A program made the position numbers and the translations under genes. Below the pieces are notes generated by a model. The model did no database searches and had not been told where the DNA came from. It saw only the letters and a program-made list of their open reading frames with translations. Shown piece by piece: positions 9,351 through 59,799 of a stretch of 64,000 nt of DNA. Origin of the DNA: Raillietiella orientalis (taxonomy: Eukaryota); assembly GCA_036172245.1 (NCBI GenBank), contig JAYWIR010000022.1, positions 62,001-126,000 of the forward strand, read 5' to 3'. The stretch's first letter is position 1, and the number at the start of each line of letters is the position of its first letter.

Positions 9351-9464
9351 GTGATCTTCATATAGGCACTCACCCAATATAATTCCAGCTGGCCACCGAT
9401 TCTTTACCAGTTCAAACGCTTACCGCGCAGAAGTGCTGCTAGTGTCGGTTTATTAGCCAGTGCC

Positions 9465-9495
9465 ATCGCTCCTTGGCTTTTTGGCTAAGATCAAA
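9465..9495 (+). pseudogene. U2: U2 snRNA 5' fragment (nt ~1-31), interrupted by insertions
   Basis: ATCGCTCCTTGGCTTTTTGGCTAAGATCAAA versus the conserved U2 5' end ATCGCTTCTCGGCCTTTTGGCTAAGATCAAA (recalled): 28/31 identical. Confidence 0.88.
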
Positions 9496-9732
9496 CTGCC
9501 CGCGGCGGCGACCTTGCGGCTAGGGTGTCCGCGCGTGGTGCCAAGAGTTGCCGGTTCGAATCCCATCCGGGGAAAGAAGAGAAACGAATGCGTCGTAGTT
9601 TCGAATGCTCCCGCAGGATGACGCTGGTTGGCGTAGGCTTGGGGTACGAAAATCTTCGGTACTGATCCGAAGATTAGGAAGAGCCTGCAATGTTTCACGA
9701 TTAGGCCTGTAATTTTCTTTCATTTAATACAA
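9496..9732 (+). mobile_element. tRNA-derived SINE-like element (~237 nt) at the U2 insertion site
   Basis: tRNA-like head with a B-box GGTTCGAATCC (9553-9563) and a degenerate A-box region. Internal 9-bp hairpin AATCTTCGG/CCGAAGATT (9651-9675). T-rich tail ending AATACAA directly before U2-like TCTGCTTTTAT. Confidence 0.7.
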
Positions 9733-9743
9733 TCTGCTTTTAT
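9733..9743 (+). repeat. 11-nt U2-derived target-site duplication (5' copy)
   Basis: TCTGCTTTTAT versus TCTGCTCTTAT at 15109-15119 (10/11 identical). Both correspond to U2 TCTGTTCTTAT. Confidence 0.65.
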
Positions 9744-12700
9744 GCTCCCAATGTTGGTTCTGCTTTGAAAGAGTTTTCGGAGCGTTTCCAAGTGCTTTGG
9801 TGTCCAAATGCTTTTGAGTCAGCGTTCGTCCATGACAAGAAAAAAAAACGAAATCCGTAACGACACGAAAAGCGTCGGTAACAACTTGGAAGATCCAAGA
9901 ATGGTGTCCCATGCCAGATTACTTTCTTTATTTATTTGTTCTTTACTTATTTGCCGTTCTTTATGTATTTTCGTATGGCTTTCATTGATTTAATGATGTT
10001 TGCAATTTTTTGGCATGAGTTTTCGCAATTTATTCTATTCCTGTGATCAATTTAGCTGAAATTTCTTTGGATTCTTCGGTTTCATGTTTGGTTTGCTTGC
10101 CTTTCCCAAATGCCGACAAATTTAATCTTCACTTTGTAAGCCTCACGCCGTCGTCATGTGTATTTTTTGTTCCTTCGAATTTTTACAAATTTTATTTTTA
10201 TCTGTAGTTGTTTTTGTGTGCCTTTTTAATGTGTGACCTTGTTGCGAAAGGTTTTGGTCTTTTTAAAAAAAAAAACATTTTTTTTTTCCTTATTAGTTCG
10301 AGTTCATTTGGATATGAAAGTATGGCTGCCACTACGCTAGGGTCATGATGATGACTGTGGCTGGGCTCCTGCGGTGGTATTCGTTGCTCAGGGCGATTGC
10401 TTCGTCTGCCACTGTCTACGATAGTCTGGCTTGCTCCAAAACATTGGAACAGTATGCAGAATGTGGACTGGGATACCCACAGGCTTAAGTGGCCACCTTT
10501 ACCTTACTTTTCCCACTGGCTTCTCCCATGTCCCGCGGTGTAGAGGGCTGTGACTTTGTTACGAAGACGGCCGCTACTCACCAGCAAGTGCAGTTCGCAA
10601 AACGTCACTTGAAAGCTTCTCCTGAAATCCAAGATTTGCAGTTCCAGTATAAATGTGGGGTTTGCCGGGCAATAATCCAGTCGAAAAAACCGTTCGCCCA
10701 TGAAGGCCCTGATGATCCAGCTCCATCTTCTGTTCCTGTGGTTTGGCCACCAATCTTCGACATCCCACTTTGTTTCAATGGCAGGGTACCTGACTGTGGA
10801 ATGAGCTTTGGTAGCAGAAGAAGGCTTCTGAACCATAACCTTCAGCATGACCGGACAGAGAGGAGCACAATTAAAATCTCTGCATTCCCGTAAAATACTG
10901 TAGAAGAAAAAAACATATGCAGAAGATAAGGAACCTGAGAATTCTGCAGAAGTGAGCAGGACAACAAGAATGCCGCAAGAGAGTCGGCATTCATCATCGT
11001 CGAATGATGGGACGTATCTCTGCGAGACGCCTCCCTTGGAACCCTGCTTGCATGGTGTTGAAAACTCTCAACAAGAACATTGACAACAGCAGGTAGGTTT
11101 TGAGAGGGCAGCTTTGAGAGGTCCACGGCGAATCATTGGAAAAGTTGAGATGGGGTAATTTTTCTCTGAAGCCACTCTCTAAGGACAAGGATATTCTTCC
11201 TTTATTCCGGGCGAGTGGACAGGGAGACTTCCTGGACATTGAGCAACTCTCGAAGCCCATCATTGAAGACGCAAGTGAGGGGGAATCTACAGAGATAGCT
11301 CCTGTTGTGACGACGGAATCCAAACAGAGAAAGCTTGTAGGTGAAACCCTCCAGCCAGAAAGTACGATGCGCATCTCAAAAGTAAAGGAGGATCGGATAT
11401 AAAGAAATAACAAATAAGAGAAAGTCTTCGTATCACTTTTCTACGCAGTAACCCTTTTTTCCCAACACTTTTGATACCGTGGGAGAAGAAGCTCTTTTAA
11501 ACCCTCTGTATGAAATTCCGCCTCCTGCGGGTTCATCCAGTTCTTCACTGCAATTTTCAACTCCTCACTTTCCTCGAATCGTTGAGATGGAAGAAACCAC
11601 TTCTTGAGGCGCAGGAAGGAAGAGGTAGTAGTCACTGTACGCGAGGTCAGAACTGGGAGATCAAAAAGCTCCCATTTCAATTTCTGAATTGTCTGGAATG
11701 TGCCGACAGCATATGTTGCCTCGTTTTCGTGGAGAACACCTCCTGATCCCAGCATTCCACGTCGTCGGTTCTGAATGGTACGCCGCAGTTTTGAAAGCGT
11801 TTCACAGTAGACTTGCGAAGTGGTGGTTGCTCCGGTTCCATAAAGTCCACAAAAAGCACACCCTGAAAAAAAAACACACACACACACACACATTCTTTTG
11901 GTACCACACGCTGCTGTTAGCGCATTCCAGACAATTCAGAAATTGAAATGGAAATTTTCTGATCTCCCACCTTACAATCCTGACCCTTTTGTCTGTAGAA
12001 CCACTGATACATTTTTTTTCTCTTATTTGTTATTTCTTTATATCCGATTTTTGAGATCAGCCTCGTATGAGGAAGAAGCGTAAAAAAGGAGGGTCAAGGC
12101 AACCAGATTACTCCGGAAAATTTACGGAAGAGAGGAAACAACTCGAGGAACTGCAGAAAGATTTTTTATTTATTTATTGTGTCTTCCCTGCGTTTCAAAC
12201 CTCCACAGAAGTGGTCATCCTGTGGAGGTTTGACGTGATGGTCATCCCCAACGAACTTTTTCTTTTGGGATACATTTTTATATGTAAGGTGCACTCTTCC
12301 CCTGATTGGCAGTGTGTTTTTTAAGTAAAGGTCCCGCCGTACCGGGTACAAACCAGAAAGCGGATACGAAGCAGTGGGAGGTACTTGAAAACGCTCATGA
12401 CGCGTTCATAATCAGAATTCACAACGAGTTGAAGGTCAAACCTCCTGAAGGTTATACTAAGAGGCTGCAGATCGACATGGGCAACAACTCCCAAATCCAG
12501 AAGCTGTACGGGTTGAACAGAAGGAGAGTATTTCGCTGCCATCATCGGTCAGCAAGACCTTCGTTGCTCCATTGATGCTGGAGTGGTCGAGAAGCACTTT
12601 CACGAACATTCGGATTTCTCGGTGTCGAGAGATCATGAATTTCTCCAAGATTTTCTCCACTGGGGAGAAATGCTGAAGTTCTCTGGAAATGTCTTCCCTT

Positions 12701-15108
12701 TTAGTAGAAGAGGTTTCTGAATGGCTAAGAAAGGCGGAGAATTCATCGTCTGGGCTTGATGGCATCACCTACTCCGGACAGAAGATGGTTGACGCTGAAG
12801 CACCTTACTAACTCCGATATTCAACATTCTGTTCAAATCCACCGTCATGGAAGTGTACCAGGACGATTCTACTTCCGAAAGGATCTGAAACTTCCTTAAA
12901 CATGTCGTGCTGGAGACCGATCTCGGTTAGCAACAGTGCCTATGGACTCTATGACAAGTGTTGGTCAGCTCGCCTCAGGGATTGGATCCTCGAGAACACT
13001 GTATGCCCCACAACAAAAAAGCTTTCTTCCATTTGATGGAGTTTTAGATACAACTTCGTGCTGCAGACTAAATTGGACCACAAAAGGCGTTCGTTGAAAG
13101 ATCTTGGACTTGGGTAATGCCTTTGGTAGTGTTTGTCACGAAACTCCTAAGAACACTATTAGAAGCTGGAGTAGCAGAACTTTATATGGAGTTAGTTAAA
13201 AAAAATCCGATATCTCCACCTACGTTCAGCTGGAGTCTGCGGTTTCTGGATCGTTCTTTCTCCAGCGTGGAGCAAAAAACAAGGCAGCCCGTTGAGTTTT
13301 TTGCTCTCTATAGTCTCCCTAGAACCACTTCTACGGGAAATGAGGGAGAGTTGTGGAGAAGAAGAGACTCTCCTGGTGTATGTTGATGGTCATCTTGACA
13401 GAAAAGGAAGATGACTTTGAGGTCAGGCTAAGTCATTTTGAGGATTTGGCGTCGCGTTCATCAGTCCTTCCAAGTGCGTCGACTTGTTCTGTTACGGGAA
13501 AACTTCTCGTGGATTAAAACAAATACTGCTGGAAGTTGGGAATGAATCAATTCCAGATATCTCGGTAGCTGAGGCATACAGATATTTGGGAAAACCGTTC
13601 CCAATTGAGGTTTTCGACACCGTCCCCTTGAAGGAGGATATTTTACAAAAAACTGAAATCATTCTGAACAACTCGACTTCACCCCTCGCAAAAATTGGTT
13701 GCAATGAAAACGTTCTTTTTTCGTAGTCTCATGCGTTTTCAGAGGTTAGGAACGAATCCAAAAGGAGATTGAAAGTTAGTGGACAGAGAGATTGGGAGGA
13801 TGGTGAAGACTATGTTGCATCTACCTGCAAACCTGGCAACCAGCATCCATACGGGATCGAAAAAGGGATGCCTGGGGTTGAAGTGGCATCAAATGAAGCA
13901 GACACCTTCACTGTTGATAGCTGCTTTAAACCCCTGACATCTCCTCATGTCGCGGTCAAAGAACTTGCTAAGAAGCCACTCCGAGAGGTGGTGATTAAGA
14001 AGATTCTACAATCAACTTCGGATGATGACCCTGGAAGATTCCTCTCTGGCGACACTTCTGGAAAGTTTTCTCATATTAGTAAGGATATAAAAAGTAACTG
14101 GATTACAGGAAAACAAGCTTCCCATCGCATTTCGACAACGTGGAGCTTTCTGGATGGCGAACTCAGAATTCAAGTTGGTGATTTAACCTTCGACTCGTCT
14201 TCAAATTCACCGCAGAGGTGCGCAACGCACAAAGATGAACGCACGTGGCTGGAACTGGCAAACGAGCATCCATATCAAGGAAAGATCATGTGATGCACTG
14301 GATTTCATCTTTCGTCCAGCTACTTTCTAACTAATGGGGAGTATATGCTCTTTGCCGACTTCCGATTCATCCATGCCGCAAGACTGAATCTGCTTCCAAT
14401 TCGGGGCGTGAAGGCCCCTAGCAGATAGAGCATGACAACGTTGTGTAGCTTGGGATAGACCCTGCCTCATATAGTCAACCACTGCATCAGTTCTCTCCTA
14501 TACACGCCTAGGCATAATACCATAGTTGAAAGAATATCAGCAGCGGCTAAGGATATAGCAGGATGGAAGTTGGTGTCGGCCAACAAAACTGTGCCTGGAT
14601 CCGATTCCATCCTAAGATGGAATCTAGTATTGCAGAAGGCGAATTACATAATTATCTTCGAAGTCTTCTGTCCTTTGGAATAAGGAAGGAGTGCTCAGCA
14701 TAATAAGATTGGAAAAGGGAGCAAAATGCCAGGAGATAGCACTTCTGTTTGTGAGAAAATGTCTTCAGCCCCAAGTCTGTGCGTGTATTATAGGTTCATT
14801 AGGATCGTCGGACCCCCGGAACGATGGAGTCATTCATGAATTGGCGCATCCCGAGATTGAATGAGGATAAAATGAGGCACCTAATGGTGACCTCATGTAT
14901 CCGACACAGTAGGGATATCCATTTGACGCACAATCTAGGACATCACCCAGATGACGCCCGTAATCTGCAACGAGGGAATGCAGCAGACGAGAAAAGCGTC
15001 TCTTTTAATTTATGAAGGTTGATCACTATCTTAGCCCAAGAAAGAGACATATGCCAGAGCCATTCAGTCATTGTTTTTTTCATATATTTTATATCTTACT
15101 GCAATAAA
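9744..15108 (+). mobile_element. Utopia-type (U2 snRNA-targeting, R2/NeSL-like RLE clade) non-LTR retrotransposon, near full length, inactivated
   Basis: Motifs in order: N-terminal zinc fingers YKCGVC..H (~10650) and PDCGMSFGSRRRLLNHNLQH (~10790-10850); IQKLYGLNRRRVF (~12495); SSGLDGITY (~12745); WKCTRTILLPKG (~12850); WRPISV (~12911); QKAFLPFDGV (~13015); KQGSPLS (~13280); YRYLGKP (~13577); IHAARLNLLP (~14370); TLPHIVNHC..RHNTIVERI (14460-14540); IGSLGSSDP (~14790); SRDIHLTH (~14910). Ends AATAAA (15103-15108) directly before the U2 3' part. Numerous stops and frameshifts. Confidence 0.88.
11365..12065 (-). mobile_element. Mariner (Tc1/mariner) non-autonomous fold-back derivative nested in Utopia
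   Basis: TA on both sides (11363-64, 12066-67). Ends CGATGCGCATCTCAAAA and TTTTGAGATCAGCCTCG are imperfect inverted repeats, extended by an inverted ATCGGATATAAAGAAATAACAAATAAGAGAAA block. The - strand encodes a mariner transposase C-terminus (GVLFVDFMEP, YCETLSKLRRTIQNRRRGML, LKKW..QRF, EGLKELL.RYQKC). Confidence 0.9.
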
Positions 15109-15143
15109 TCTGCTCTTATCAGCTTGATTCCTGAAGTTCCACC
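15109..15143 (+). pseudogene. U2: U2 snRNA 3'-of-insertion fragment (nt ~40-75), truncated
   Basis: TCTGCTCTTATCAGCTTGATTCCTGAAGTTCCACC resembles arthropod U2 TCTGTTCTTATCAGCTTAACATCTGATAGTTCCTCC (recalled). No Sm site recognisable downstream. Confidence 0.8.
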
Positions 15144-50520: not shown

Positions 50521-53350
50521 GGGTCTTTAGAAGGTAAGCTGTTTACTTGAATGAAACTCGAGATGCTCGGAATCCGGCCCAATGCCTTCGCCATCCAGGA
50601 GCGGTGGTTCCGTCCGTCGCTCCAAGAGTCCGAGTGGGCGACCCGACATGCGTGCGCGATGAGACGATAGTCGGGGATCTTGGCCGAGGTGAAAACGCCG
50701 GGCAGCTGGAGGAGCTGGAGTCTCGAACACCAGAAATAAACCATCGGAGTGCGAAGTGGGAAATCGGGAACCTATCGATCTGCGGGGGGCAGGAGGGCCA
50801 ACAATACAATGGGTAAGAGAGAACGCCGCTCGCAGCGGTTCGGGAGGGAAGGGTCCATTGGGGCAAGCCTGCTCGCAAGGAGGATCTTGGAGCACTCGGA
50901 GCAAAGTGGACGCTTCCTTCTCTCCCCCGTTGCCGCGGTTACGCGAGATTAGAGAACGGCTCCGAGGTTTGGGAGGGGGGAGAGGAGGAGGAGAAGGTTG
51001 AACTTTTAAGCTTCGAGATTTAGGAGGGATTTCATTTGTCAATTATTAATTAATAACCTTTCTTTCTCTCATGCAACCGGACTTGGGCGATCAAAAAGAT
51101 TAAATGGGGGAGGACGCAAAAGCTACGAGGAATTCTTCGCAAGAATGAGGGATCTGGTTCGCGTCCTGAGCCGCCGGCATCGCCCCGTTTCGATACTTCT
51201 TAATAAATTGTGGAGCATCATCACATAGCGAGCTTGAAGGAGTTTCTTTACGTAATTAGATTTCAAATTGGGGGCCAGGGAGGAGGAGGGAAGCGAAATA
51301 GGAATTACGGAGGTCACGGTGGGGCTCTGCCATGTCTGAAATAAAGATGCGCGCCAGCTTACGGAGGATCGACTCGAAAGGGATCTCTCCTGGAGATGAA
51401 TTCTTCCGAGAGGATGCGTTCGCCAGGGAGCAGTTGCTGGGCGGTAGCGTGTCGGAGGTGCATCGTTCCGGACCTGTCCAGCGTGAGGACACGACCCGGA
51501 CGCCGCCCTCCGTTCTCATCAGGGTCCGGCAACCTCCTTCCCGGGAGAAAACGAGAGGAAGGAAAGAGAGGACGCAGTAGTAGAGCGCCGCCAAATAAAG
51601 CGCGTCGAAGAATATGAGACCTTCCTTCGCGGGATGACGTGAATGCAGGCGCTTCCATATTTTGGCAGGAAGACCGCCGGCAGTGGCTTCACGCTATGCC
51701 AAAGAGGGAGTTCCTCGAGAGGAGAGGTCAAGGCATCCGCTCCTCCCCCTTTCCCGGAGGCTGCCATGAGGGATCCTCCTCTCTGGGAAGGAGCGAGGCT
51801 CCTGAGCCGACTCGTGGCGGCTGCAGCGGCACTCCCTGTTTCCACCTATGCCAGCAGGCTTGGAACGGTGGCGCCATCTGCGGCGGCAGGCCATGCGATA
51901 CCAAAGGGTCGCAGACCGCGACTAGAGGCGGAAGCGACGCCGCGAGAAGACCCCGGCAGGAGCTGGGAGCGCGGTCACAGGGATATTCCCGACGGCTGAG
52001 AGAGCTTGAAGATGCCCTTTGCTCTCACACAAGAAATGTCTACTTCGGAAGCGTCCGGTCCGGTCCTGAGCTTCAGCCGCTGCGCAGGGTCGCTTCTCTC
52101 CCCTTCTTTCCTTCCTTCCCCCCTTTCCACATCGTGGCAGACTTCTGCTGGGAGCCGGGAGGAAGTCGTCGCCGCCGCCGCGCGAGATGGAGACTCTGCC
52201 ACGCGCAAGCGCCATTCGGGGCGCGCGCGATCGATCGGACTGCCAGCCGCTTCGAGGCATTCCCGCCCTATCCGTTCCGCCTCCCGACGCCATCGACCCG
52301 CCCCTCTCTCCACCTCTCCTTCTCTTCCGGAAATCTTTCGGAAACGTATCCTTGCTCCGGTCGCTTCTTCCTGCCGCGATCGAACGCTTGGAAGGGAGGA
52401 AAGGGGAAGGGGGGAGGGGTGGCAGAAACGGGCACGAGAGCCCCCGCTTCCGTGGGTTCTCTTCTGCGGCTCATCGCCGCTGCCGCTGCTTCCTGCCTTC
52501 TGGGCTACATCGCCCAGCCATCGCTTCCGCTCGCCCGAAGTGGGTCGCAGGAGGCACGTATCCGTAGCAACCGCTTTCATTAACGGGAGAGCGGAGGGGA
52601 GGAGGAGAGGAAAGGAGGTGACCTTCTCAACTCCAGACCACCGCCCCAGAACCTCCCGTTTAGAAACGAGTTTCGGGAAGATTGAGGATTCACCGTCAAC
52701 TTTGGCCCCCCTTTCCTTTTCCTACGAGTCCGGAGGTGGAGAGGGAAATGCCCGACAGAGACTTACGATGCAAACGTGCTTTCTCCCAGGCTTCCTTTCC
52801 TCCCTCCTACTCCCTCTTTCCTTTTTTTCCCTTTCCGGCAGCCTGTACTATCGGAAACGTCCTCTTCCTCCGGCAGTGGTGTGAGGTGGCTGCGACCCCT
52901 TCTCCTCCTTCCCCCCGTCACTCTCTTCTGGATGCGTTTCATCGTCTGCTTCCTTCTTTTCCGCCTCTCCTCACGCGGCTCCAGGTCTTCCGCTCCACTC
53001 GATCCTCTCTTCTGACCCCGATCCCCCCCCTTTCCCCCCCTCTCTCTCCCTCCGCTGCGGGCGCGCTCACACCCCTCCGTCCGCCCTTGCATTTTCGGGG
53101 GGCTCGCCCTTCGCGCCACCTTCGGGGACGCGCGCGCGAAATGGAGAGAAAGTCAAGGAGGTACGTGAGATGGGGGGGGGGGGAGGACGGATGTTCCCAT
53201 CCGAGCGCCCGCTCCTCAGCGTCCGGGAGAGAGTAAGGACCGGCAGGGGCCGGACGCTACCCCTGGACTCGTCGTCTCGTGGATGCAGGAAGAGTCAGTC
53301 CAAGAGAGAGAGACAGAGAGAGAGATCAGAGGAACAAACATAAACCGCAC

Positions 53351-55124
53351 TCACTGTGATGGTGCGTTACAAGTGTGGTGGTAGACCGTGGGTTCCCATA
53401 CCTCTGCAGGGGCGAACAGCGCTACCTCGTGGTGATGGTGGTGGTGGTGGTGGTGGTGGTGGGGCTCGAAGTATCCGTCCGCCGCCGCCGCCGCACTGAA
53501 CTTTCTTTCCACCGTAGGCTGGGACGGAGAGCAAGGGCCGTGGGGAGGTTTTGGATGCAGCTTGATGACCTTGGGCGGAGGGGGAGGCGGGGGCGGGTCG
53601 TGAGTCAGTTCGGGGAGATGCCACTTGCAGTGGGGGGTTGACGCCGCCGGCTGCTGCTGGGCGTCCAGGCGGACCACGACGTCGTTCAGGCCGTGCAGGG
53701 TCGCGGAGCTGCCCACCCCTCCTCCGGCTCCTCCTGAGCCGCCACCGACGTCGAGAGTGGTCGTGGAGCCCACGGCGGGAGCGGCGGAGACCACCACGCA
53801 CTTTTTGCTCAGGGCAGCTGCCACGAAGGGCAGAACGTTAGGTGTGCCGCTGCCTCTGGGCAGCAGTCCCGTAGGGACGTGGTCGCCAGAGGATACCGGG
53901 GGGATGGCGGCTGAGGAGCCACTGCCACTGCCTCCACCGCCGCTGTTGTTGCCGCCGCCGCCGCTGCTGCTGCTACCACTGCTGCTGCCGCCGCCGCTGC
54001 TGCTGCTGCTGCTGCTGGAGGTTGTGGACGCCGCGGCGGCGGCGGCAGCGGCTGCCCAGGCGAGCACCGTGTGCCTGCCCTCGCTCGCGGCCGGGTATTC
54101 GTGGACAGCGTCCTCGGTCAGTCGCTTGGTTTTGAGATCATCGGAGGTGGTGGATTTTATTCGACCGTTTGGGATGGAAGGGGTCGCCGGCACCGTAGAA
54201 GCGTCCTGCTGCTGCTGCTGCTGCTGCTGCTGCAGAGAACCGTAACCGGGCGAGGCGTGGTCCCTCTTCGGATGGTGTGAGTGGTCCTTGACCAGCAGCT
54301 CGGGAAGAGGATTGACCTCAGCTGTCGGCATCACCATGATGGAGAAGTTCACGTAGGGGTCCGCCAAGGCGGTCTTGGGGACTTTTCGGTCGCAAGGGTC
54401 GTATTTTGTCATCTCGACGCCGCCGCAGGGGTACAGAGGCTTGGACTCGGTCGGCGGGCACTTGGGAAAAGAAGAGGCGTCGTAGGAGACGAGATTGGGG
54501 CAGGGCCGGGGGGTCGGCACGTCGAGGAAGCCGTTCCCCACGTACGGCCCCGCTGCGGGCACGTGGCAGCCGTACTCTGGGTAGTAGTTGCTCAGGTGGC
54601 GGTACGGGAAGAAGCCGTCTGCGGCGGAGGAGGGCAGCAGCCGGTTATCCACGGTCGAGTACAGGTTTTGGTAGCTCTGGAAACCGGGCGCCAGGCCGTA
54701 GAGGGGATGGGGCGCTTCCCCATGGAACGTTGCCGCGCCACTGTATGCGCCGCCACTTCCGTAGCTCCCACCCCCGTAAGGACCTCCGCCTCCGATGCCG
54801 ACAGGGGTCTGCACTGCCGCTGCTGCTGCCGCTCCGCTGGCTACGGAAGAGGTCTCGGGCACGTACTCGGCCGACATTTTCTTTTTTGTGCGGTAGGACG
54901 TCAGATACTCCCGGAGCTGGTTCTTGCAGCGGCGATTCAGGCGTGGCGGCTGCGACCCGTTGTGATGCATGGCTGCCGCCGCCGCTGCTGCTGCCGCCGC
55001 CGCCGCCGCCGCTGCCGCTGCGGGCTCTGCCTCCACCAGGTAGCTGCTGCTCAGGTTCATGTCCAGGTAGCTGACCTTGAAGTCCATGGTCCTCTTGCCG
55101 AATAGATCGCGGCCTTCTTCCTCC
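53351..55124 (-). CDS. ss: spineless / aryl hydrocarbon receptor (bHLH-PAS), terminal exon
   Basis: Acceptor TTTTTCTGCAG; (M)EEEGRDLFGKRTMDFKVSYLD and RRCKNQLREYLTSYRTKKK match Spineless. Low-complexity C-terminus to TGA at 53351-53353. Confidence 0.9.
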
Positions 55125-55349
55125 CTGCAGAAAAAAAACAGAGAGGGACTGAGGAGGTGGCGGCGTTAGCATCCACGTGCGAAAGCGCCTTCCGCTTCAT
55201 CCTCTCCCTACCAACCTCAGAAGTCGAGCACCCCCCTCGCTCCGCCCCATCCCCGTCTCCCCACAACGCTCGTACTCGCCCTGCTCCGCCCCTGAATAGA
55301 AGCCTCTTGTGCCCCTGCCCTCCATCCCGTGCCATCCCTCGGCACTCAC

Positions 55350-58729: not shown

Positions 58730-59489
58730 CGGTTTCACGGGAGCGGGTTCGAAACCGCCCGCGTCCTCACCAGTGGAGGCGGAGCCGCAGGCGCGGAGCG
58801 GCGTCCCCCTGCGCCTTCCCGCCGCGCGCTCCCTCCCTCCCTCCCCCTCCTGGGGACGGCGCGTTCGTTCCCTTCGCCCCCTTTTGTTCGATCCCCGTCC
58901 CCCGCTCGCCGCGCGTCCTCCAATCGACGCCCGGGAAAGGAGAGAGGCGGCCAATCGCGCCTCCTCTTCCCTCCTGGACGAAAGCCGCCACCCCCTTTCG
59001 CCTCCAGAGAGCGCCCCTCCGAGCACCTTGGGGAGGCCCTTCCCTCCACCTCACCCCGTCCCCGCGGAGCAAACGAATGGGACGCTTGTGAGGTGCCCCT
59101 GCGAACGAAATGCGGAACCCCTCCACGGATCACTCCCGAGCTCCCGCGTTTCTTTTTTTTTTTTTTTTGCCTTCCGTCTCTCCCCTTCCCCGCTCGTCCG
59201 TCTGCGGGAACGACTGCAACTCGTGAGACCCAGGACGAACGGTCACTACGAATCCAAGATGGCCGCCTCCGCAAGCGGCGGAAGGTCGAGGGATCTGCGC
59301 TCGTCCTCCTCACCTGTCCTTACCCCCTCCTCCGTTTCTATCCAGGGGCGGAGGGGAACGCCATTTCCTAGGACGCTCCCGGAGCGCGTGCGACGTGAGG
59401 CGGGCGCGCCGCCGAGCAAGTGGGAAGGGGGAGAACGAGGAAGCGGAGGGGAAGAGCCTATGCAGCGGGGGCGGCGGCGCCCTCCTTAC

Positions 59490-59680
59490 CTTGGAAGTAG
59501 CTCTTGGTCCTCAGGTAGCTGACGGAGAGCCGCAGAATGGACAGCTTGTCCAGCTTGGACAGGATATTCTGGTCGAAGGGCAGCAGGCTGGCCAGCGTGT
59601 CCAGTTCGGCGTTGAGCCTCTCCCGGTGGCGCTTGCTGGGGTTGCTCTTGGTGACCCCCTCCTTGGTCGGCGGCTTCAGG
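59490..59680 (-). CDS. ss: spineless/AhR bHLH exon (the preceding first exon was not found in the window)
   Basis: [71 protein letters not shown]; 191 nt. Confidence 0.98.
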
Positions 59681-59799
59681 CTGCAAGAGAACAGCCAACA
59701 GATAGAGAGAGGTCGCAGCAAATGCTCCTGGGCCGCCGCCGCCGCCCCTCCCTCTCTCGGTGCGCGCGCTCCAGCTGAGGCGAGCGAGGAGGTGGCCGG

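Follow-up and report, generated by a model that had tools for sequence, protein, structure and literature searches.

A 237-nucleotide unit and a decayed Utopia-type retrotransposon at a common junction in a U2 snRNA gene of Raillietiella orientalis

The window analysed here, 64,000 nucleotides (nt) of Raillietiella orientalis DNA (assembly GCA_036172245.1, contig JAYWIR010000022.1, positions 62,001 to 126,000 of the forward strand), contains the remains of a U2 small nuclear RNA (snRNA) gene that carries two different inserted sequences. One is a non-coding unit of 237 nt (9496 to 9732) and the other is a decayed long interspersed nuclear element (LINE) of the Utopia type (9744 to 15108), and each ends directly before a copy of U2 sequence that begins at U2 nt 39. 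Because two sequences abut this base and one of them is a LINE with reverse transcriptase (RT) and restriction-like endonuclease (RLE) at the Utopia site, stacked insertion is the most economical reading. The evidence supports a new instance of a known pattern, that of stacked site-specific insertions in a U2 gene. The account favoured here is that two or more sequential insertions were primed at one U2 nick and that Utopia-type machinery carried the unit along as a truncated or non-autonomous passenger; this account is put forward tentatively, at somewhat under an even chance. Coordinates are those of the window, features lie on the forward strand unless stated otherwise, and window-wide counts refer to this single 64-kb stretch, on both strands where stated (128 kb).

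The U2 remnants and the LINE

The 5' part of the U2 gene is retained at 9465 to 9495, as U2 nt 1-30 (9465 to 9494) followed by one extra A. The fragment aligns to positions 1-30 of the Rfam U2 model with 17.5 bits (E 0.29), under the gathering score of 46 because just the first 30 nt remain, and its sequence, GGCTAAGATCAA, has one occurrence in the window. U2 nt 31 or 32 to 38 are lost at the left edge of the 237-nt unit. On the far side of the LINE, the T/A-rich tail finishes with AATAAA (15103 to 15108) and U2 resumes at nt 39 directly 3' of it, as TCTGCTCTTATCAG at 15109 to 15122. UCUG begins at nt 39 of the Rfam U2 consensus, and the sequence agrees with the U2 flank quoted by Kojima and Jurka (2015, PMC4640811), in whose account U2 continues from nt 39 on the downstream side of Utopia insertions. 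U2 was not found further downstream of 15109 by Rfam at E<=10, and Rfam with gathering thresholds gave 0 matches in the whole window. A third, short U2-like piece lies between the unit and the LINE. This 11-mer, TCTGCTTTTAT at 9733 to 9743, resembles U2 nt 39-49 and matches the copy at 15109 to 15119 at all but 1 of its 11 positions. The U2 gene, carrying a decayed Utopia and a separate 237-nt insert, is dead.

An earlier note on this DNA, made from its letters without database searches, had proposed this layout, and the sequence bears it out: U2 fragment, 237-nt unit, 11-mer resembling U2 nt 39-49, LINE, and U2 from nt 39 onward. Its claim that two elements have a common 3' junction in U2 holds as well, both abutting nt 39 (at 9733 and at 15109), and its proposal of stacked insertions at one target agrees with these two junctions and with the published tandem insertions of Utopia.

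Utopia is a NeSL-clade LINE that targets U2 genes and encodes RT plus RLE (PMC4640811), and the LINE at 9744 to 15108 is assigned to it from architecture and insertion site. A T-rich 5' region reaches to about 10480 and is followed by a zinc-finger region (about 10492-10893), RT and linker (12707 to about 14370), CCHC and RLE (14378-14683), a stop codon (15013-15015) and a 3' untranslated region (UTR; 15016-15108). The open reading frames (ORFs) are fragmented, the longest having 188 aa, and Pfam finds in the element only a weak RVT_1 match (E 0.053, 13196-13414). Relatives give a clearer picture. The 74-aa RLE frame at 14459-14683 matches 39 proteins at E<=1e-3 in HMMER (best 5.5e-10), near the C-terminus of these relatives; when relatives were scanned in Pfam, 6 of 6 had a mid-protein RVT_1 and no other family at E<=1e-3. 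With RT and RLE relatives as queries, tblastn covers 12707-14846 (P0126, E 4e-62; P0122, E 1e-57) and also the zinc-finger stretch at 10492-10740. The nearest representatives with RT and RLE are 25-27% identical, and one of them is a hypothetical protein of Cherax quadricarinatus. A protein search with the 188-aa ORF returned no relatives, and searches of the PDB with the RLE and RT fragments returned nothing relevant.

In the endonuclease alignment the CCHC, RHN, RPDLV, D and K-x2-KY blocks of a restriction-like endonuclease can be followed, so that the element shows the RT, C-terminal CCHC and PD-(D/E)xK RLE of Utopia and no APE endonuclease, and its 3' end abuts U2 nt 39 (TCTGTTCTTATCAG, at 15109-15122). 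No Myb family was found in the N-terminal ORFs of the window, where the N-terminus is decayed and interrupted by a transposon, or in the 6 relatives; absence of the Myb domain is reported to separate Utopia from R2 (PMC13188248). The CCHC finger is broken by stop codons. The endonuclease of this copy is predicted to be inactive because its blocks are mutated, with RWNLV in place of the RPDLV of relatives and IFEV where relatives keep D, and the copy is, as judged from its sequence, incapable of autonomy.

One nick or one insertion

The U2-like 11-mer between the unit and the LINE carries much of the argument, and its probability under chance was estimated in several ways. The exact pattern TCTGYTYTTAT occurs 2 times in the window where 0.12 is expected, and a count of 2 was reached in 1 of 100 shuffles. 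If local composition is preserved, such an 11-mer is expected by chance somewhere in 9496-15108 with a probability of 1.3-2.2%, which falls to 0.4-0.8% for the first 600 nt. The piece at 9733-9743 is taken here as a real U2 fragment, with a small residual probability of chance. Past these 11 nt the likeness to U2 ends. A second TCTGCTTT octamer follows at 9759 to 9766, 26 nt past the first; the octamer is found 6 times in the window against 3.9 expected, and two of these are the copies at 9733 and 9759. The two octamers enclose 15 nt of unrelated sequence (9744-9758), and the pair could be what a third, abortive insertion left behind, or could reflect filler at the 5' junction of the LINE.

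These figures bear on an alternative with one insertion only, already raised in the earlier note, in which the unit is Utopia's own 5' UTR and the 11-mer is a chance match or a relic of a master copy. It has the simplest count of events, one U2 gene and one insertion with loss of nt 31/32-38, and a chance 11-mer somewhere within the element is not negligible at the frequency given above. The end of the U2 likeness after 11 nt would also suit it, and the ORF begins only near 10490, which implies a long 5' UTR in any case. The unit also resembles 9744-9990 weakly and collinearly (z 2.5, a score equalled or bettered in 7 of 500 block shuffles), which points the same way, and a repeat search gave short collinear repeats spaced 219-266 nt. 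However, two motifs resembling U2 from nt 39 within 34 nt are hard to obtain by chance, and GC content breaks sharply at the boundary, from 53% in the unit to 32-41% in 9744-10300. The collinear likeness itself (score 150) does not rise above background, since higher scores were reached by at least 18 of 1260 other segments of the window. A single insertion with a long 5' UTR is regarded as unlikely, at roughly one chance in a handful. An arrangement of tandem 5' UTR monomers of about 230 nt was likewise considered and is unsupported: the likeness is at background, and the k-mer band for a 230-nt periodicity reaches z 1.6-1.7. The strongest k-mer band, at 380-420 nt, is attributed to two poly-A runs.

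The anatomy of the locus, the common U2 junction and the RT and RLE character of the LINE are read from the sequence itself; any mechanism, order of events or class for the unit is inference. In the stacked-insertion account, an old U2 snRNA gene would have been struck more than once where Utopia nicks its target, between U2 nt 38 and 39, each time by target-primed reverse transcription with a Utopia-type RT/RLE protein; this would be the reason that U2 nt 39 directly follows every inserted piece. The near full-length Utopia, from 9744 or 9767 to 15108, would have come from one event and the 237-nt unit from another. A staggered second-strand cut would duplicate the downstream U2 half over its first 8-11 nt and leave the duplicate sandwiched between the pieces. 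The unit would most likely come from a second Utopia lineage, as a copy with a severe 5' truncation, or else be an internally deleted non-autonomous derivative, and a non-autonomous unit could be co-transcribed from the U2 promoter with no need for an RNA polymerase III (Pol III) promoter of its own. There is a hint, from this one copy, that the unit may be younger than the LINE, because its hairpin and B-box are perfect and the ORF of the LINE is heavily broken.

Published Utopia insertions offer close parallels. Utopia is reported to be strictly U2-specific and sometimes tandem in Hymenoptera; of 94 Utopia 3' junctions in Nasonia vitripennis, 20 lie directly against a further Utopia, and Utopia-1_NVit has been found in tandem in U2 genes (PMC4640811). 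The present locus resembles these in its arthropod host, its LINE with RT and RLE, its precise 3' junction at nt 39, its variable 5' junction and its more than one insertion per U2 gene. Variable 5' junctions and precise 3' junctions are described for Utopia and R2 in the same paper (PMC4640811), and they fit the loss of U2 nt 31/32-38 at the left edge of the unit. Two differences are evident. The upstream unit here has no likeness to the co-resident Utopia, and a short U2 duplicate lies between the pieces, whereas the arthropod families are reported to make no target-site duplication.

The R2 clade, also RLE-type, supplies the nearest model for a non-autonomous derivative, since it is reported to make site-specific non-autonomous short internally deleted elements (SIDEs) (Eickbush and Eickbush 2012, PMC3414825; Kojima 2018, PMC5786205). 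In these and in bipartite non-autonomous LINEs, as in the present locus, a short non-coding element occupies the specific site of an RLE-type LINE, with presumed use of the target-primed machinery of that LINE and co-transcription with the host RNA gene. The unit has the site and the junction features of a parent LINE, ending at the copy of U2 nt 39-49 and showing a small target deletion at its 5' side. SIDEs as described in those papers are built from the 5' ribozyme and the 3' end of the parent; in contrast, neither end of the unit is significantly like the co-resident Utopia, the one LINE compared, and Rfam lists no ribozyme.

Several results weigh against stacked insertion with a Utopia-derived passenger. 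The 11-mer retains a 1-2% chance explanation, and the duplication of 8-11 nt departs from the published pattern for arthropod Utopia families, for which no target-site duplication is reported (PMC4640811). Against the last 400 nt of Utopia the unit scores 28, the shuffle mean being 28.0 and 96 of 200 shuffles being as good (z 0.0); its last 100 nt reach z 1.6 against Utopia, with 15 of 200 shuffles as good. At the protein level, 9 frame pairs of the unit and the Utopia C-terminus were compared, and the highest-scoring pair has z 2.7 and a raw score of 32. These failed DNA and protein alignments rule out the unit as a truncated copy of the co-resident Utopia family, and since protein likeness to the Utopia C-terminus is lacking, the truncated-LINE version needs a second, unseen Utopia lineage. 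The one open frame of the unit (56 codons) has no relatives in a protein search restricted to 98-2000 aa, which makes this weak evidence. A single copy of the unit is known within the window, and its perfect B-box is left unexplained by stacked insertion.

The nature of the 237-nt unit

The unit changes in composition along its length, from a GC-rich head (67% GC, 9496-9580) to an AT-rich tail (37% GC, 9651-9732). A perfect 9-bp hairpin with a 7-nt loop occupies 9651 to 9675, its stem arms being 9651-9659 and 9667-9675; it appears in the RNAfold prediction for 9640-9732 and as an inverted self-match in blastn. By the authors' own estimate, a perfect 9-bp hairpin would arise by chance in 237 nt with a probability of about 0.7%, and it may have a role in recognition by the RT. 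Folding energies of the unit, of its head and of both tails are at shuffle level (z -1.1 to +0.2), the whole-unit fold having z -0.16. With blastn the unit finds only itself in the window, the next best match being 17 nt long (E 0.19). The two background alignments in which the unit scores best, near 51600 (minus strand) and 18400, are both long, with gaps and low identity, and were set aside as chance. The same verdict was reached for the 1 metagenome match to a 21-mer from the head, which lies in a GC-rich contig without a tRNA or other likeness to the unit.

The earlier note had described the unit as a candidate tRNA-derived short interspersed nuclear element (SINE), transcribed by Pol III and mobilised by Utopia. 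Its structural observations stand: the B-box is a perfect 11-mer at 9553-9563, RNAfold recovers the 9-bp hairpin with a perfect stem, and the T/A-rich tail ends in AATACAA. The tRNA-like head was not upheld, as ARAGORN and Rfam call no tRNA and a cloverleaf appears just at a threshold that yields 109 matches. One check proposed in that note, a unit tail that aligns to the Utopia 3' UTR, failed at the shuffle level given above. The Pol III SINE identity fares no better, with the B-box alone present, no tRNA call, an internal TTTT and an unshared tail.

As an explanation of the locus, a Pol III-transcribed tRNA-derived SINE that borrows the Utopia RT and endonuclease, and so inserts at the common U2 site, is considered improbable. 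The B-box favours it. The 11-mer GGTTCGAATCC is a perfect match to the consensus GGTTCGANNCC, which has 3 matches in the window against 0.74 expected (128 kb, both strands; 1 of 100 shuffles reached 3), and scaling of the window figure gives an expectation of about 0.003 within the 237-nt unit. It stands 58 nt from the unit start, near its place in a tRNA. The promoter of a SINE is under selection, and a perfect box is expected inside an otherwise poorly tRNA-like head, as is found here. The short non-coding unit, its structured AT-rich tail and its use of Utopia's 3' junction would also suit a SINE.

The search for a tRNA gave little to set beside the B-box. ARAGORN predicts 0 tRNAs in the window, and a His-like cloverleaf at 9499-9574 is first seen when its threshold is lowered to 76%, where the window yields 109 matches, or 1.7 per kb. 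In that relaxed cloverleaf the acceptor stem forms 5 of its 7 pairs and the anticodon stem 3 of 5, and the T stem is poor. Neither a tRNA nor a ribozyme is among the 3 Rfam matches at E<=10 in 9380-9900 (listed down to 13.9 bits), and no convincing A-box was seen by eye in 9496-9552. The TTTT run at 9713-9716 is a potential Pol III stop that would halt transcription 16 nt before the 3' end required for priming, though it could be a later mutation of this copy of the unit. No second copy was found in the window. Kojima (2015, PMC4494074) argues that an element can do without its own promoter when it lies within a transcribed U2 gene, and oligo-T runs are used in the same paper as an argument against Pol III transcription of SINEU.

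Comparison with described SINE classes leads to a similar result. The tRNA-derived SINE2 elements, which are paired with a LINE by a common 3' tail, resemble the unit in length, non-coding character, B-box and structured tail. The unit differs from them in that it has no tRNA-like fold, recognisable tRNA-derived head or clear A-box, in that its body contains a T4 run where a SINE2 body would be free of Pol III terminators of T4 or longer, and in that its tail is not common with the LINE, the co-resident LINE alone having been compared. SINEU of crocodilians (Kojima 2015, PMC4494074) shares with the present locus a U2 5' fragment directly before a short non-coding body. As described in that paper, SINEU has poly-A tails, a Tx1-Mar partner and a Mariner-N4 target and is reported only from crocodilians, whereas the unit ends in AATACAA with no poly-A and is located at the Utopia site of a U2 locus.

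The composition of the unit also raises the prospect of a chimera, in which, as reverse transcription ended, the RT switched template from LINE RNA to at least one further cellular RNA, or the 5' junction captured filler DNA, with a foreign GC-rich head joined to a short LINE tail. Template jumps of R2 are documented and have added 156 bp of U12 snRNA, an 80-bp tRNA-Lys with CCA and 18 nt of tRNA-Gly to 5' ends (PMC3414825). In common with those 5' extensions, the present locus has a foreign, small-RNA-like sequence 5' of an RLE-type LINE insertion together with an upstream target deletion, the contrast between head (67% GC) and tail (37% GC) would follow from two templates, and a tRNA-related second template would account for the B-box. 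However, a jump to a mature tRNA should leave a near-perfect tRNA with CCA, and no CCA comes after the putative acceptor end near 9574. The head is unrecognisable as a tRNA although the adjacent U2 fragment is well preserved. A U2 target fragment parts the unit from the LINE, unlike in the R2 extensions, and this piece of U2 nt 39-49 is unexplained unless a separate insertion is assumed. A chimera is given only a slim chance.

Novelty and context of the locus

A literature search found no description of a U2-specific SINE or of any non-autonomous Utopia partner, and SINEs appear in the Utopia paper (PMC4640811) in a reference only. It is doubtful that the unit is a copy of an undescribed non-autonomous retroposon specific for the Utopia site, with a tRNA-derived B-box head and mobilised in trans by Utopia. 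If this were true, no earlier SINE would be known to depend on an RLE-type LINE with snRNA genes as its target, and a locus of this type, with a U2 promoter and U2 nt 1-30, could give rise to retroposons with a U2 head, as in SINEU. The RNA features that the Utopia enzyme needs would also be revealed by any non-autonomous partner, which would be a natural minimal template. RLE-type enzymes such as R2 are in development for targeted gene insertion. As it stands, the locus is a further example of repeated insertions into one U2 gene, and the persistence of site-specific LINEs in low-copy RNA genes is described as a puzzle of population genetics (Kojima and Jurka, PMC4640811).

Two further features lie within the LINE. 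Its T-rich 5' region contains three copies of a T-rich 15-nt repeat, TTCTTTAYTTATTTG, at 9924-9971. A mariner-like non-autonomous DNA transposon is nested at 11392 to 12048 on the minus strand, with 32-nt terminal inverted repeats that are 100% complementary, a Transposase_1 remnant (PF01359, E 6.5e-5, minus strand 11441-11935) and an internal 58-nt inverted repeat (11654-11711 with 11912-11969, 88% complementary). Because its ends are perfect, the sequence suggests that this element is much younger than the LINE that it interrupts. CpG depletion was considered as a gauge of age and is uninformative because the observed/expected ratio is about 0.7-1.0 across most of the window.

Elsewhere in the window, long stretches of 59-67% GC between 34000 and 62000 contain open frames 300-600 aa long in several reading frames of either strand, which is the pattern expected of composition alone and not of genes. 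A 604-aa open frame on the minus strand (53351-55165), in a block of 63-66% GC, has runs of Ala, Gly, Ser, Gln and His and may be a large low-complexity exon of a neighbouring gene. The window adjoins a developmental transcription-factor gene, whose likeness to known proteins, taken by itself, places the host among the arthropods and would point to a probable hymenopteran: a basic helix-loop-helix exon of a spineless/aryl-hydrocarbon-receptor gene lies at 59458-59790 on the minus strand and is 94% identical to many insect proteins, with Hymenoptera prominent among the best matches.

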